This document shows, piece by piece, positions 3,806 through 24,352 of a stretch of DNA of 25,000 nt. Location: contig JAIWFS010000001.1 in the NCBI GenBank assembly GCA_048631505.1, positions 1 through 25,000 on the forward strand, written 5' to 3'. Numbering within the stretch: the first letter of the stretch is position 1; each line of letters opens with the position of its first letter. The translations under genes were made by a program, and so were the position numbers. This DNA comes from an archaeon (GTDB lineage Bacteria; Desulfobacterota; Dissulfuribacteria; Dissulfuribacterales; UBA3076). The notes beneath the pieces are model-generated. The model did not search any database. It was not told where the DNA came from and saw nothing but the letters and a program-made list of their open reading frames with translations.

Positions 3806-4303
3806 TTACTTGCGCAGAGTAGCTATCATTCGTTTGGGTTTGAGGAAAATATCCAGTGCATCACAGATGTTGAAGAAAACGGCATTACTTGCCATCAAGG
3901 CATCAATCGAGGCCCCTTCTTTACCAATTACGCACAAACCCAACTTGGCCTCTTTCAACATCAGGGCGTCATTACAGCCATTACCTATAGCCACTGTCTT
4001 ATCACGACCAAGCTCTTCCAGAAAAGCAAGCTTCTGCAGATCACCCCTACCGGATTCCAGTTGATGGATCTTTATACCACACTCCTCCACCAACTGATCA
4101 GTCAACTGGTCAAGAGTTTGACCTGTATCTGCCGTCAGTACATAAGCATCCATTATTTCCGATATTTCCTTTAGCCGCTCGACGACACCGTCAACAAAAC
4201 TGCCATCAACTGTAATTGTCCCGTTAAGATCCAGTATAATATTGAACAGATTGTAGAAATCCCCACAGGGCATATCTATTTGCATCTTTCGAGAACCAGA
4301 CAT
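3806..4303 (-). CDS. HAD-superfamily hydrolase, soluble P-type ATPase-like
   Basis: DLNGT motif I, LTADT motif II, AIGNGCND motif IV; AGGAGG SD upstream of ATG 4303. Confidence 0.85.
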   Translation of the reverse strand: MSGSRKMQIDMPCGDFYNLFNIILDLNGTITVDGSFVDGVVERLKEISEIMDAYVLTADTGQTLDQLTDQLVEECGIKIHQLESGRGDLQKLAFLEELGRDKTVAIGNGCNDALMLKEAKLGLCVIGKEGASIDALMASNAVFFNICDALDIFLKPKRMIATLRK

Positions 4304-4327
4304 GACTTATCCCCTCCTCAACGTTTC

Positions 4328-4756
4328 TTATCTGTCAACCCTCGCAAAGATAGACCGGCGAATACGAGCCGGCAAAAAAGCCACTGCCCCATCAGCCACC
4401 TTTCTCAGAAGTGGAATCAGGTCTTCACGCCCCCTCCAGTTATCTTTAAGCACCTTCTCGTCAACCCTGAGAACTAAACGCAACAGAGCAACGGCCACCA
4501 GGTAAACATCGTCAACCAGTCCTACAAAAGGAATCCAGTCAGGCACTAAATCAACCGGATTTAACATATAAGCAACCGTCGCCCCCAATATAGCCTTATC
4601 AGTAGATGAGACCCTTGGGTCCCTCAACAGATTTAGCAGCAACCCCAAAAACTGGGGCAACAGGGCAATATAACCACGAATTCTAGCATAAATACCGCAA
4701 TTAATCTGTCGCTGAGGATTAGATTTTTTCTGTTTGCCTTTCATGTTCAGCATCAC
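4328..4756 (-). CDS. DUF1232 (YkvA-like) membrane protein
   Basis: YMLNPVDLVPDWIPFVGLVDD signature. The start could be 4756, 4753 or 4744. Confidence 0.85.
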   Translation of the reverse strand: MMLNMKGKQKKSNPQRQINCGIYARIRGYIALLPQFLGLLLNLLRDPRVSSTDKAILGATVAYMLNPVDLVPDWIPFVGLVDDVYLVAVALLRLVLRVDEKVLKDNWRGREDLIPLLRKVADGAVAFLPARIRRSIFARVDR

Positions 4757-4933
4757 TATTTTTAAATCATAACCTCAAATAGTAAATAAAGTAAAGACCG
4801 ATTTTTATAGCTTGCAATAACAGGCATTAATATTTTAAACTACGAGCCGCTTTTAAACTTCTAGATTATACTACAATCAGCCAAGAGGAAATAAGCGGCT
4901 ACATCCATTTCACCAATCATAAAGGACAATAAC

Positions 4934-19433: not shown

Positions 19434-20339
19434 ATGCAATCACCAAATCACCAAATCACCAAATCACCAAATTCATTATCCCCAATTTCAAAGGTGCGGA
19501 TACTGCTTGAAATGATAAAATTCGAGCACACTATCCTTGCCCTGCCCTTTGCATACCTTGGGGCCTTTTTGGCTGCTGAAGGACCACCTGACCTGTGGAC
19601 TTCCCTGTGGATTCTTGTTGCTATGATTGGAGCCAGGACGGCTGCAATGGCTTTTAACCGTATAGTTGACATCCCCTTTGATTCAAAAAATCCCCGCACA
19701 AAGGAGAGGGCCCTCCCCAAAGGGACTGTCAAGGCAAGGGACGCCTGGATCATGGTAATAGTTGCTTCGGGGATTTACTTCCTGGCAGCCTATGAACTGA
19801 ATCGACTGGCATTCCTGCTCTCCCCGGTTTTCCTGGCTGTTGTGCTAAGCTACTCATATACCAAGAGGTTCACCTCACTGTGCCACCTCTTTTTGGGCCT
19901 GGCCCTGAGCCTGGCCCCTACGGCCGGATGGATCGCAGTAAAAGGAAGTGTAGAATTCCTTCCTTTGATCCTCAGCACAGGCGTACTTTTCTGGGTAGCG
20001 GGATTCGACGTTCTATATGGCTGCCTGGACTATGATTTTGACCGGAAACAAGGCCTGCACTCAATACCGGCAAGGTGGGGGATAAAGAAGGCCTTCTGGA
20101 TTTCAGGCATATTCCACTTTGTGGCCTTTATCGCCCTTGTTTCAGTGGGCCTTCTGGCACATCTCAACTGGATATACTACTGTGGCTTACTGGCCACCTT
20201 TGCACTCCTGGTAATGCAAAGGCTGGTGGTAAACCCCAAGGACCTTTCCCGGATGAATATGGCCTTTTTCACCTTTAACGGGGCCATAAGCATAATCCTG
20301 TTTACCGCAACAGCCATTTCTCTTATCTGGAAGGTCTGA
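19434..20339 (+). CDS. mqnP: UbiA-family prenyltransferase (MqnP-like)
   Basis: IKFEHT, AMAFNRIVD..D..NPRT..R, YSYTKRFT and GFDVLY..LD motifs; AGGAG SD before ATG 19434 (ATG 19413 is an in-frame alternative). Confidence 0.9.
   Translation: MQSPNHQITKSPNSLSPISKVRILLEMIKFEHTILALPFAYLGAFLAAEGPPDLWTSLWILVAMIGARTAAMAFNRIVDIPFDSKNPRTKERALPKGTVKARDAWIMVIVASGIYFLAAYELNRLAFLLSPVFLAVVLSYSYTKRFTSLCHLFLGLALSLAPTAGWIAVKGSVEFLPLILSTGVLFWVAGFDVLYGCLDYDFDRKQGLHSIPARWGIKKAFWISGIFHFVAFIALVSVGLLAHLNWIYYCGLLATFALLVMQRLVVNPKDLSRMNMAFFTFNGAISIILFTATAISLIWKV
19437..19472 (+). repeat. Tandem octamer repeat C(AATCACCA)4AAT, copy 1
   Basis: Four perfect 8-bp units at 19438-19469, immediately after the mqnP ATG. Confidence 0.97.
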
Positions 20340-21133: not shown

Positions 21134-22089
21134 TCCATCAAAAAAATCCAATCACCAAATCACCAAATCACCAAATCACCAAATACCCCAATCTCTCAAT
21201 CAAAATTGGTTCCCTGATACTCAAAAATCCGGTCTTACTCGCCTCAGGGACCTGTGGTTATGGGGCAGAATTAAACGATCTTCTTGATTTGGACCAGGTA
21301 GGTGGAATTATAGTAAAAGGTATTTCCATTAAACCCCGTCCGGGGAACCCTCCTCCCCGCCTGGTGGAGACCCCGTGCGGTCTTTTGAACTCCATAGGGC
21401 TTGAAAACGTAGGAATAGAGTCTTTCCTCAGGGACAAGCTCCCCTGGCTGAGGAATGTAAAGACATCTTTGATTGTCAACATCCTTGGAAACTCAGTTGA
21501 AGAATATTCTGAAATAGCAAAAAAGCTCGACGGGGCAGAAGGTGTCAAGGCCATTGAGGTGAACATCTCATGCCCGAATGTAAAGGCAGGAGGCATTGCA
21601 TTCGGCACAGACCCTGAAGCTGCGGCAAATGTAACTCATGCGGTTAAGAAAGCCACAGGCCTTCCTGTAATAATAAAGCTCACACCAAATGTGACTGATA
21701 TTACCAAAGTTGCCCGGAAGGTGGCATCCGCAGGGGCAGATGCCATTTCTCTTATAAATACCCTCCTGGGTATGGCCATAGATATTAAGTCCAGGCGTCC
21801 GGCCCTGGGAAACGTGTTTGGAGGACTCTCAGGCCCGGCGATCAAACCCATTGCCCTGCGCATGGTCTGGCAGGTAGTCCGGGCTGTGGACATTCCTGTA
21901 ATAGGTATTGGTGGTATCAGCACCCCGGATGACGCGCTCGAATTCCTGATGGCCGGTGCAAAGGCGATTGAAATTGGTACGGCAACACTCGTACGGCCAG
22001 ACACTGCAGAGAACGTGCTGGCCGGTATCAGGGACTACATGGAGACCAACAGCATACAAAATGTAGAGGATTTGCGGCTACCGGTATGA
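21130..22089 (+). CDS. pyrD: Dihydroorotate dehydrogenase, family 1B catalytic subunit
   Basis: KNPVLLASGT, GNPPPR, LLNSIGLEN, EVNISCPN, KLTPN and GGLSGPAIKP motifs; probable GTG start overlapping the pyrK TGA (GTGA). Confidence 0.95.
   Translation: MIHQKNPITKSPNHQITKYPNLSIKIGSLILKNPVLLASGTCGYGAELNDLLDLDQVGGIIVKGISIKPRPGNPPPRLVETPCGLLNSIGLENVGIESFLRDKLPWLRNVKTSLIVNILGNSVEEYSEIAKKLDGAEGVKAIEVNISCPNVKAGGIAFGTDPEAAANVTHAVKKATGLPVIIKLTPNVTDITKVARKVASAGADAISLINTLLGMAIDIKSRRPALGNVFGGLSGPAIKPIALRMVWQVVRAVDIPVIGIGGISTPDDALEFLMAGAKAIEIGTATLVRPDTAENVLAGIRDYMETNSIQNVEDLRLPV
21149..21184 (+). repeat. Tandem octamer repeat C(AATCACCA)4AAT, copy 2
   Basis: Four perfect units at 21150-21181; 36/36 identical to copy 1; followed by degenerate units AATACCCC AATCTCTC AATCAAAA. 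Confidence 0.97.
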
Positions 22090-22101
22090 GAATTATTATA
22101 G

Positions 22102-22141
22102 GGGTTCAGAGGTTCAGGGTTCACCTTAAACCTCTGAACCC
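22102..22141 (+). repeat. Hairpin built from GGTTCA(G) repeats, just downstream of pyrD (terminator- or REP-like)
   Basis: Perfect 13-bp inverted repeat GGGTTCAGAGGTT (22102-22114) / AACCTCTGAACCC (22129-22141); no U-tract. Confidence 0.75.
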
Positions 22142-22337
22142 TATCATCCCGTCTCGCTGCCCTGAGTCAAGGCAAAACCACTCAATGGCCCCTTAAGAAC
22201 ATATTGTTTTCTCTTCCGGCAACCGTTATATATGTGAATATTTACGGCCACGTCGGTTGCAGAATCACTATTAGCTGACATGGATACCATAGCAATGAAT
22301 ATAACTAGACATATTCTTATAAAGAGAGGAAAATCTT

Positions 22338-22481
22338 ATGGGGGAAAAAGAGCGTCGTTCCAGAAAAAAACGAAGATCGGGGGTAGACCGCAGGAAGTTT
22401 AATGATCCGAATTACAAAGGACCTGAACGTAGAAGTGGTCGAGATAGGAGATCCGAAAAGGACAGAAGGAAATCCGCATAA
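22338..22481 (+). CDS. 47-aa Arg-rich small protein with a YxGPERR motif (putative c-di-GMP-binding peptide); not in the ORF track
   Basis: Hand translation: MGEKERRSRKKRRSGVDRRKFNDPNYKGPERRSGRDRRSEKDRRKSA; GAGAGGA SD 7 nt before the ATG; periodic [D/E]RR units. Confidence 0.75.
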   Translation: MGEKERRSRKKRRSGVDRRKFNDPNYKGPERRSGRDRRSEKDRRKSA

Positions 22482-22534
22482 AAGCCATGGAGGAGGCCAT
22501 AGGGGACGCCAGTGAAAGGTTGACATGCTCTTGG

Positions 22535-22567
22535 GTCGCGGTAGGAATGCCGGTTACACGGCGCACC
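22535..22567 (-). mobile_element. Probable decayed group II intron 3' end (domain VI only)
   Basis: Minus strand GGTGCGCCGTGTAACCGGCATTCCTACCGCGAC resembles recalled bacterial group II intron termini (...GCGCC.GGTAAC.GGCGTCCCTACCGCGAC). No domain V and no RT ORF nearby. Confidence 0.4.
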
Positions 22568-22588
22568 GTGACCGTTGTTCAGAATGGC

Positions 22589-22903
22589 CTACTGATAAGC
22601 AGAGTCATGATCGGGATGTAACGACAATAGGCGTAGCCATAAACCATCACGGTACGCTACTCCCCGAAATCCCTTTCCAATACGAAAACTGTAAAGTTTT
22701 TTGCCGCTTGGGCCTTTTTGAGATAAAATGACTTCCCATTTTAGACCATAATCTGAATATACCTGTTGCCATGTCATGTTTGCTAATTTCCGCAGAGTAT
22801 TTAGGATGTTGCGCTGGTCACTTTTGGTGAGGTTGAAAAGGTGGCGTTGAAAGACGGGGTTGTTCAAATCCAAGCGCACCGTCTGATATATTTTCTGGCT
22901 CAT
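22589..22903 (-). CDS. Putative RelE-superfamily type II toxin
   Basis: 104 aa and basic; RelE-like layout (LYSFRI..GFRGVAYR...LRLLSLHPDHDSAY); ATGA overlap with the upstream antitoxin-like gene. Confidence 0.6.
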   Translation of the reverse strand: MSQKIYQTVRLDLNNPVFQRHLFNLTKSDQRNILNTLRKLANMTWQQVYSDYGLKWEVILSQKGPSGKKLYSFRIGKGFRGVAYRDGLWLRLLSLHPDHDSAYQ

Positions 22904-23154
22904 TGCTTGATCCGGGTCTCTAATTCCTCAAAGTTTGTATCTTTGGGTGAATTTTTTTCTGCCCAAGCAACAGCTTCATTGAGTTCGGCCTGAACTCCCG
23001 GACCATGTAGCCATCTTTCATTATCGGGAATAAACCGACCCAGCTTGACGATCCAAACGCCGGTCTCGATTTCATCAATCATTACTGCTTGACCGGCGAA
23101 TTTTTTGCCAAGTGAGATCTGACCACTACGGCCGACTGTTTTTATAGTGTTCAT
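22900..23154 (-). CDS. Putative AbrB/MazE-like antitoxin (84 aa)
   Basis: N-terminal IKTVGRSGQISLGK AbrB-like beta-hairpin and an acidic C-terminus; AGGAG SD before ATG 23154. Confidence 0.65.
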   Translation of the reverse strand: MNTIKTVGRSGQISLGKKFAGQAVMIDEIETGVWIVKLGRFIPDNERWLHGPGVQAELNEAVAWAEKNSPKDTNFEELETRIKQ

Positions 23155-23184
23155 AGTTTCTCCTGAAATTGATATTATGATTTT

Positions 23185-23212
23185 ATGATAGCATGAATGC
23201 ATGATAAATCAA
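23185..23212 (-). promoter_or_regulatory. Candidate promoter/operator of the TA operon
   Basis: Minus strand TTGATT-N16-TATCAT; the spacer holds the palindrome GCAT-GA-ATGC between two ATGATA direct repeats. Confidence 0.45.
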
Positions 23213-23398: not shown

Positions 23399-24352
23399 GT
23401 GACTAAAAGAACTGAGTACATCCAAGCAAGGAAATCGCAGTTGAGTTTTTATAGAAAAGTACCTCTCTATATTAAAGGAGAGAAAGATAGATTTATTCTA
23501 TACAAACAAAAAGGGATAACCATTGATGATATGCGTATCAGCGAGAAAACATATCCATCTGTATTATATATCAAATCCTCAGACAAGATAAAAGGTATTC
23601 AAGAGGCACAGAAAGCATTTAACAAAAAATTAGAAAATGATATTAAATTAGGCAATCCTGAAAAAGTCAAGGAAACTCTCATCAGTATTGTAAGAGAAAC
23701 TTTTGAAGAACCAAGAAGTGGCAGCCTTGAAGGTGTTTATGACACAGTAAATATTTTAGTCAGCGACTACTCAAAAGAACATGATGTTGTTAAAAACTTG
23801 ATAGATATATCACACAAAGATTATTCAACAATCTTGCATTCTATCAGTGTCATGGCACTTGCATTGGGTTTTGCATCTTATATTAATCTTTCGCAGGATG
23901 AAACAAAGGTGCTTGGCTTATGCGGATTACTGCATGATGTTGGCAAAACGAAAATTAACCCAGAGATACTTAATGCCCAAAGAAAACTGACTGATGAAGA
24001 ATTTGAAGAAATGAAAAGCCATACCTATAGAGGTTACAATATTTTAAGAGAATGCAAATTCAAAAATGAATATATTAAACGCTTATCTCTTAGTGCTCTT
24101 GAACACCATGAAAAATCAGATGGTACTGGATATCCACTCAACAAAACTGAAAATCAATTAGCAAAATTTTCTCAAATAATTGCCATTATCGACTGTTATG
24201 AAGCATTGACAAATGATGACAGACCATACAGGAGCGCAATGAGTCCTTTTGATGCTTTGAACGAAATAATTGGAAGAAATGTAAAGAGTGGCAACTACAA
24301 TAAAGAAATATTTACCCTATTTATTCAAAGCTTGAGTACAATTGTCAAATAA
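23399..24352 (+). CDS. HD-GYP domain protein (probable c-di-GMP phosphodiesterase)
   Basis: LHS, LLHDVGK, HT..G, HHEKSDGTGYP, IIDCYEAL and RPYR motifs; GTG start; no recognisable sensor domain. Confidence 0.9.
   Translation: MTKRTEYIQARKSQLSFYRKVPLYIKGEKDRFILYKQKGITIDDMRISEKTYPSVLYIKSSDKIKGIQEAQKAFNKKLENDIKLGNPEKVKETLISIVRETFEEPRSGSLEGVYDTVNILVSDYSKEHDVVKNLIDISHKDYSTILHSISVMALALGFASYINLSQDETKVLGLCGLLHDVGKTKINPEILNAQRKLTDEEFEEMKSHTYRGYNILRECKFKNEYIKRLSLSALEHHEKSDGTGYPLNKTENQLAKFSQIIAIIDCYEALTNDDRPYRSAMSPFDALNEIIGRNVKSGNYNKEIFTLFIQSLSTIVK

Follow-up and report, generated by a model that had tools for sequence, protein, structure and literature searches.

We report that positions 22338-22481 of the 25,000-nucleotide stretch of DNA analysed here (the window) are a genuine, conserved small gene under purifying selection, and that its 47-residue product, to judge from its sequence, probably serves as a minimal natural c-di-GMP receptor or buffer. 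Established here are the sole match of the peptide family in the PDB, its match to the tails of natural Cle-type proteins against a shuffling control, a contrast between first and second genomic neighbours, and operons with PilZ and GGDEF genes. On the usual view, cyclases and phosphodiesterases set the level of c-di-GMP, and folded receptors read it. If bacteria encode such peptides as genes of their own, second-messenger control would have a natural layer that has been overlooked, in which mini-proteins buffer the messenger or hand it over.

The protein element to which the peptide is compared is the ARR, a portable arginine-rich region that forms a complete c-di-GMP site in Cle-type CheY proteins (PMC5677366) and has the tandem consensus [Y/F]xGP[D/E][R/K]R (Nesper et al. 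2017, PMC5677366). The ARRs of all five Cle proteins bind c-di-GMP, although that of CleA needs its C-terminal region to do so, and the ARR of CleD remains functional when grafted on other proteins (PMC5677366). Two c-di-GMP-sequestering peptides, CSP1 and CSP4, have been cut from CleD (PDB 6SFT; Hee et al. 2020, PMC7382256), and the sequence of the CleD 140-174 peptide is published in Table 1 of that paper. Apo-CSP1 is unfolded; the CSPs bind two c-di-GMP per peptide (2:1) and fold on binding (PMC7382256). An engineered CleD fragment of 19-36 residues can sequester c-di-GMP and block biofilm formation, and a CleD-derived synthetic peptide expressed in P. aeruginosa lowered free c-di-GMP and blocked biofilm formation (PMC7382256). 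The gene in the window and its parts are as follows:

22338..22481, + strand: 47-codon gene whose product is a free-standing, arginine-rich mini-protein resembling an ARR, from the ORF list; the end coordinate takes in the stop codon
22324..22329, + strand: Shine-Dalgarno sequence GAGAGG, read from the sequence, 8 nt before the ATG
22386..22445, + strand: codons 17-36, counterpart of the minimal c-di-GMP-binding 19-mer CSP4 of CleD, as mapped on Table 1 of Hee et al. 2020
22350..22376, + strand: codons 5-13, two extra N-terminal (E/K)RR units, from the family alignment
22443..22472, + strand: codons 36-45, two extra C-terminal DRR units, from the family alignment

The evidence that this is a gene comes from its conservation. 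An ortholog with 91% identity is found in a genome of the same genus (G004), and lies downstream of pyrD in both genomes. Aligned at the nucleotide level, the two intergenic regions are 93.7% identical over 174 nt, from the Shine-Dalgarno site to a few bases past the stop codon, and the flanks of this block cannot be aligned. Six synonymous and four non-synonymous differences separate the two ORFs, with none of the latter in residues 13-38. The initial annotation had held that a real gene should have homologs in related genomes with dN/dS below 1; such homologs were recovered, and the ratio (NG86) is 0.17 between the window and G004, with a median of 0.12 over 205 family pairs. Per-site entropy at codon positions 1, 2 and 3 is 0.75, 0.49 and 1.44 (48 homologous cores), a pattern that fixes the plus frame and excludes an antisense ORF. 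The 17 nt before the ATG are conserved along with the ORF in the G004 ortholog and at loci from other phyla; the flanks are not. An in-frame ATG further upstream in G004 is not conserved, and the product is therefore the 47-residue form.

In a cold-seep metatranscriptome assembly, a contig over 22345-22622 has a depth of 37, and the contig just upstream one of 3.8, which is compatible with transcription and could also be given by DNA carry-over. A strain variant in the cold-seep runs, 22420 G>A, turns Gly28 into Glu. That the ORF makes no functional protein, and is instead there by chance, encodes a leader peptide rich in Arg codons or marks a conserved RNA or antisense element, is very improbable, and has largely been refuted already. 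Its shortness would fit such a reading, as would the lack of a Pfam or NCBIfam match, a promoter and terminator scan around the gene that returned nothing convincing, and RNA evidence that consists of assembled metatranscriptome contigs, which may contain DNA. However, the coding signature and the low dN/dS both point to the plus frame, the Shine-Dalgarno sequence and ORF are kept together as a conserved island, and hundreds of homologs of equal length occur across phyla. A leader peptide was considered and rejected: the next downstream ORF lies on the opposite strand and the downstream genes differ among loci, so that there is nothing to attenuate. Likewise, a scan of 21900-22800 with Rfam, for a c-di-GMP riboswitch or other RNA, gave a chance lncRNA match far below threshold.

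The peptide contains 14 Arg, 7 Lys, 4 Asp and 4 Glu, so that 21 of its 47 residues are basic and its net charge is +13. Its [E/K/D]RR units fall at residues 5-7, 11-13 and 17-19, and again at 30-32, 36-38 and 42-44, with a spacing of 6 within each triad; the stretch FNDPNYKGP links the two triads, and RxxxR spacings occur at R9-R13 and R31-R35. Recounted on the sequence, the composition, charge, triads, RxxxR motifs and Shine-Dalgarno sequence are all as the initial annotation had described them. Neither Pfam nor NCBIfam has a match to the peptide, and a search of the ESM Atlas returned unnamed small-protein clusters only. An AF2 model of the apo peptide is of low confidence (pLDDT 60), coil-like and without a fold, as expected for a peptide resembling unfolded apo-CSP1, and the product is predicted to be intrinsically disordered without ligand.

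A resemblance to CleD had been proposed in the initial annotation, which gave a CleD string. That string proved to be residues 150-169 of the published peptide (PMC7382256 Table 1), and the gapless alignment claimed for it is reproduced by BLASTP, with 11 of 18 identities and a pairwise E of 9e-7. Position by position, the two correspond as follows:

CleD D154-R155-R156: peptide D17-R18-R19, conserved
CleD R157: peptide K20, differs
CleD Y163: peptide Y26, conserved
CleD G165-P166: peptide G28-P29, conserved
CleD R167: peptide E30, differs
CleD K168: peptide R31, equal to the affinity-raising K168R state
CleD R169: peptide R32, conserved
CleD D172: peptide R35, with D36 coming one residue later

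In CSP4, alanine at Y163, G165, R168 or R169 causes losses of more than 20-fold or complete loss (43-fold for G165A), D172A and R167A each cost 10-fold, and K168R raises the affinity of the CleD peptide (PMC7382256). Counterparts of Y163, G165, R168 and R169 are all present in the window peptide with identical spacing, as are those of D154-R155-R156. The published CSP motif is DRR-x11-(R/K)RxxD, with a helical turn at RxxD (PMC7382256). In codons 17-36 we find DRR (D17 R18 R19), 11 residues with Tyr and Gly-Pro in the loop (Y-K-G-P), and then R31 R32, followed by an Asp that lies one residue further on than that of CleD. Where CleD has its Asp, three residues past the second Arg pair, the peptide has Arg35, a position that is variable in the family, and it is the following one that carries a conserved D/E/N. 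Natural Cle-type tails also vary at the D172 position (ERRKGGKAD), and the Asp of (R/K)RxxD may thus not be a universal feature.

Measured against the ARR consensus, the second half-motif, YKGPERR, is an exact fit and is nearly invariant in the family, and E30, which differs from CleD R167, agrees with the [D/E] position of the natural consensus. The first half-motif, RSGVDRR, keeps the Gly and the DRR and lacks the Tyr and the Pro. The absence of the first Tyr of the Cle motif had been entered as a caveat from the outset; it is true and matters little, since the 19-mer CSP4 also lacks this Tyr and yet binds c-di-GMP at 177 nM (PMC7382256). Of greater relevance are two other deviations: the Asp lies one position further on, and Gly28 is not invariant, 5 of 22 aligned homologs having Glu or Lys there.

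Profile comparisons extend the match beyond CleD. Searched against 177,635 distinct PDB sequences, with matches reported to E<=10, the family profile has a sole match, the CleD peptide 6SFT_A (E 0.006), aligned over profile positions 15-33. We also gathered about 117 natural Cle-type CheY proteins, via the receiver-dominated similarity of a family member with a CheY receiver (L053/P0170). Their tails read Y-F-G-P-D-R-R-R-N-x-N-P-N-Y-x-G-P-E-R-R-K-G, and are nearer to the peptide family than CleD is. Aligned by hhalign, the family and these tails give probabilities of 96.6-97.3% and scores of 42-47, with residues 14-34 covered; the full alignments reach 97.3%. When the three sequences nearest the bridging one were dropped, the probability was 96.6% and the score 42.2, compared with 9.2 +/- 2.6 (maximum 18.5) in 100 column shuffles; because the score lies far above that of the shuffles, the resemblance goes beyond composition. 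We conclude that there is a solid case for homology between the window peptide and the ARR module. A CheY-like receiver (Response_reg) N-terminal to the ARR is absent from the ORF, which is bounded by the conserved Shine-Dalgarno sequence and the stop codon, and the peptide is therefore not a Cle protein. With a Cle-like core and 47 residues devoid of any Pfam domain, the idea of a homolog of the Cle binding region that stands without a carrier domain has held up.

What the CleD model leaves unexplained are the flanking RR units, whose arginines R13, R38 and R44 are as invariant as the core; R6/R7, R43 and K45 are nearly so in the family alignment. These outer units may represent added valency, contacts with a partner or ligand, or a broader binding of polyanions.

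The peptide is a member of a large family. A word-indexed search found 21 close homologs, mostly of 46-50 aa, unnamed and without Pfam domains, and the family consensus retains almost all residues from R13 to K45. An exhaustive profile search gave 496 cluster representatives (E<=1e-3, clusters at the 50% identity level), and among the best 150 of these, 122 (about 80%) are no longer than 100 aa. Since they fall below the usual annotation cut-offs for length, genes of the family are largely missing from genome annotations. A scan of species-representative genomes located 52 genomic loci in about ten bacterial phyla, the labels of the MAGs being Nitrospirota, WOR-3, Deltaproteobacteria/Desulfobacteraceae/Syntrophaceae/Syntrophobacterales, Atribacterota, Cloacimonadota, Acidobacteriota, Ignavibacteria, Bacteroidia, Anaerolineaceae and Omnitrophota. 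Cultured carriers are Sphingopyxis granuli NBRC 100800 and Sphingopyxis sp. PET50.

A smaller part of the family takes the form of C-terminal tails on unrelated proteins, among them a CheY receiver (L053), an alphaproteobacterial methyl-accepting chemotaxis protein (L056, 2009-4093) and a ParA/MinD-like ATPase (P0043). Further carriers are a recurrent domain of about 340 aa and unknown function, bPH_4, YbjQ_1 and a membrane protein; an ESM Atlas search with the ~340-aa domain (of P0070) gave weak matches only (0.78). Inside a Treponema beta-CASP/RMMBL RNase (L060, 126-1757) the module is embedded within the protein. One 99-aa protein (L049, 3923-4222) holds two complete tandem copies, with a helical N-D-E-L-x-x-R-I-x-G-L-L-R-E-L segment ahead of each, and its gene adjoins a DUF4118-GGDEF gene. 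At another locus (L059), a related peptide frame has an in-frame stop.

Within the genus of the window, a clear ortholog was found in 1 of 17 genomes. The block 22319-22488, which comprises the ORF and about 17 nt of the Shine-Dalgarno region, has 70-91% nucleotide identity to L027 (1342-1509), L010, L047 and other loci that carry the labels of other phyla, all with different flanks. The highest value is for the Desulfobacteraceae-labelled L027, the flanks of which do not align, and dS to this locus (0.16) is as low as that to the same-genus G004. Given the single ortholog in the genus and a match to L027 that stops at the edges of the ORF and Shine-Dalgarno sequence, the gene looks accessory and horizontally mobile; alternatively, the short MAG contigs may be mis-binned. 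A scan of viral contigs found no relatives of the family, and origin from a phage sponge is thus without support.

In the window, a gene of c-di-GMP metabolism lies in the vicinity:

23399..24352, + strand: gene for an HD-GYP-type c-di-GMP phosphodiesterase, with a Pfam HD_5 match of 6.7e-23 and an HHE..DGTGYP motif

Its match to the NCBIfam c-di-GMP phosphodiesterase family is 1.6e-18, below the family cut-off. The initial annotation had pointed to this neighbor about 0.9 kb away. The gene is indeed there, 918 nt downstream of the peptide ORF, but the arrangement is not conserved: in G004 the peptide gene lies between pyrD and folE2, and the 3.1 kb around it contain no HD-GYP gene. Two opposite-strand ORFs separate the peptide gene from the HD-GYP gene of the window. 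They overlap (22589-22903 and 22900-23202, both on the minus strand; 104 and 100 aa), have a toxin-antitoxin-like layout without a Pfam or NCBIfam match, and are covered by metatranscriptome contigs at a depth of about 62. On the other side, 13 nt after the pyrD stop, a 19-bp inverted repeat (22102-22141; 89% complementary, 2-nt loop) has GGGTTCA-like heptamers and no T-run, and is absent at the G004 locus. Perfect octamer arrays, (AATCACCA)x4.4, occur at 19438-19472 and 21150-21184, at the 5' ends of a membrane-protein ORF (19413..) and of the pyrD ORF. They give both ORFs odd 'HQITKSPN' N-terminal extensions, and the true starts of both are therefore probably downstream of the arrays. A single-domain PilZ protein is encoded at 258-599 on the plus strand (Pfam PilZ 1.8e-15), 22 kb from the peptide gene.

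We surveyed the nearest gene on each side of 55 family loci (103 proteins) and the second neighbours (93 proteins) with Pfam. The commonest domains among the immediate neighbours are PilZ (6), HD (4, including 2 HD_5) and GGDEF (3), compared with second neighbours in which none of PilZ, HD or GGDEF has two or more members. At the level of the family, the peptide is thus genomically associated with c-di-GMP genes, which is no evidence that the peptide and the HD-GYP gene of the window work together as a pair. The c-di-GMP neighbours stem from only 3-4 clades or arrangements, and so are not independent. There is no universally conserved neighbor, the largest neighbor cluster covering 6 of the 55 loci, and in the complete genomes that carry the gene (WOR-3, Anaerolineaceae, Sphingopyxis) no GGDEF gene lies nearby. 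Elsewhere in the genome of the window (a MAG from cold-seep or marine sediment, 71% complete) at least two GGDEF and at least five PilZ proteins are encoded, and GGDEF genes are present in 9 of 10 other peptide-bearing genomes that we examined. The sole carrier without one is a Thermoplasmata-labelled MAG, on a 5.3-kb contig (L048) that is probably mis-binned, since its neighbor gene clusters, ABC-transporter genes, are common to the Atribacterota loci L022 and L028.

These data bear on the possibility that the product is a basic peptide that binds polyanions in general (RNA, DNA, ribosomes or polyphosphate), and that its likeness to the ARR would reflect a shared grip on guanines or phosphates and not specificity for c-di-GMP. 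A disordered peptide of such high positive charge could behave in this manner, its six regularly spaced RR units are all conserved, one copy of the module sits in an RNase, and in about four fifths of loci no c-di-GMP gene adjoins. However, the best-conserved stretch is the non-basic D-P-N-Y-K-G-P-E core, which matches the natural Cle N-P-N-Y-x-G-P-E far beyond composition, and the sole PDB match of the profile is a c-di-GMP peptide, with no RNA-binding protein. Nor were there recurrent ribosomal or RNA-metabolism families among the first and second neighbours, and CSPs of similar charge are reported to be highly specific for c-di-GMP (PMC7382256). We therefore regard general polyanion binding as quite unlikely.

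The most regular arrangement of the family is found in Nitrospirota. In six species (L016, L021, L025, L030, L033, L042), the next gene after that of the peptide, on the same strand, encodes a 226-240-aa double-PilZ protein, with a gap of 46-71 nt in five of them and a slight overlap in the sixth (L025). The pair is located at about 4180-4930 in most of these loci, the genes upstream of it differ among species, and a frameshift or stop splits the PilZ gene of L030. Three further Nitrospirota species have a DUF4118-GGDEF gene directly after the peptide gene, on the same strand, and at L024 and L042 the peptide gene is flanked by HD-GYP genes homologous to that of the window. These operons with PilZ and GGDEF genes argue that at least some members of the family act together with partners.

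Such operons are also a ground for supposing that the peptide is a c-di-GMP-dependent adaptor rather than a passive sink. The folded peptide-(c-di-GMP)2 complex, or a c-di-GMP bridge, would then dock on a specific protein and regulate it, candidate partners being the co-transcribed di-PilZ protein, the DUF4118-GGDEF cyclase and the HD-GYP enzyme. The di-PilZ pair is kept while its upstream genes change, the invariant outer RR units are not needed for a CleD-type site and could touch a partner, and the ARR of Cle proteins belongs to an effector and not to a sink (PMC5677366). On the other hand, at most loci, those of the window and of its ortholog in G004 among them, there is no partner gene that is conserved, and where partners occur they fall into three different kinds. 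As an account of the peptide in the window, we consider an adaptor rather unlikely.

We think it likely that the window peptide binds c-di-GMP in the manner of CleD. The peptide, disordered alone, would fold around an intercalated c-di-GMP dimer as the CleD peptide does, with D17-R18-R19 and R31-R32 reading the guanine Hoogsteen edges, Y26 stacking on the outer guanine and G28-P29 forming a turn. Since the peptide has no output domain, holding the ligand or presenting the complex to a partner are the only modes of action left to it. It may act simply by holding c-di-GMP, buffering it or competing for it so that less is free for other receptors; alternatively, where its gene shares an operon with that of a di-PilZ protein or of a diguanylate cyclase, it may work with these neighbouring c-di-GMP proteins. 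At the window locus we rank the buffer or competitor slightly ahead, since there is no conserved partner there. Taken as a whole, the picture that we favour on balance is that of a genuine gene for a disordered, free-standing ARR homolog that holds c-di-GMP as a buffer or competitor, or acts with neighbouring c-di-GMP proteins; ligand binding, stoichiometry and the buffering role are parts of it that we infer.

A more far-reaching version would have all six conserved RR units bind ligand, so that each peptide takes up more than one intercalated dimer. The family would then consist of natural multivalent sponges of 38-70 aa, probably spread horizontally, which set the thresholds at which PilZ proteins and other receptors respond in some ten phyla. 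This is doubtful, and we offer it tentatively; if it were true, the sponges would be a third layer of control over the c-di-GMP pool, beside synthesis and degradation. The sequence clusters of the family number in the hundreds and come from many phyla, some of the genes being in operons with PilZ or cyclase genes, and the natural variants would offer a stock of binders from which biosensors and anti-biofilm tools could be made. A literature search, with subscription journals mostly outside its scope, found no papers on ARR peptides that occur naturally without a carrier, on how widely they are distributed or on the operons to which they belong.

How does the peptide compare with known systems? 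With the PilZ-domain site it shares two RxxxR spacings, and in PilZ the arginines of RxxxR contact an intercalated c-di-GMP dimer. Unlike a PilZ domain, it has no beta-barrel, no (D/N)xSxxG and no match to Pfam PF07238, and PilZ proteins enter its story as neighbours only. The phage sponges Tad1, Tad2, Acb2 and Acb4 are alike in concept, in that a nucleotide messenger is controlled by stoichiometric sequestration. However, they are folded, oligomeric, phage-encoded and aimed at immune signals, and the peptide family is unrelated to them in sequence.

Cle proteins and the peptide both have a linear, arginine-rich module of about 20-30 residues with DRR, an N-x-x-Y-x-G-P loop and (D/E)RR, and in both the module is portable, being found in the peptide family on CheY, MCP, ParA/MinD-like and other carriers. 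In contrast to Cle proteins, the window peptide lacks the receiver domain and the C-terminal region, its first half-motif is without Tyr and Pro, and it has two extra conserved RR units on each side. The distributions differ as well: the ARR matches of the 2017 survey are mostly alphaproteobacterial (294 of 302, with 5% of the matches having no known domain; PMC5677366), whereas the peptide family lies mostly outside the Alphaproteobacteria. CSP1 and CSP4 are engineered, whereas the window peptide is naturally encoded, and its Asp is one residue further, R157 is replaced by Lys and R167 by Glu, and Gly28 is non-invariant in the family. Only for the CSPs have binding, a 2:1 stoichiometry and in vivo sequestration been demonstrated. 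The window peptide resembles these two in that they too are free peptides of similar size, carry DRR-x11-(R/K)R with counterparts of the key residues, and are disordered without ligand, as observed for CSP1 and predicted for the window peptide.
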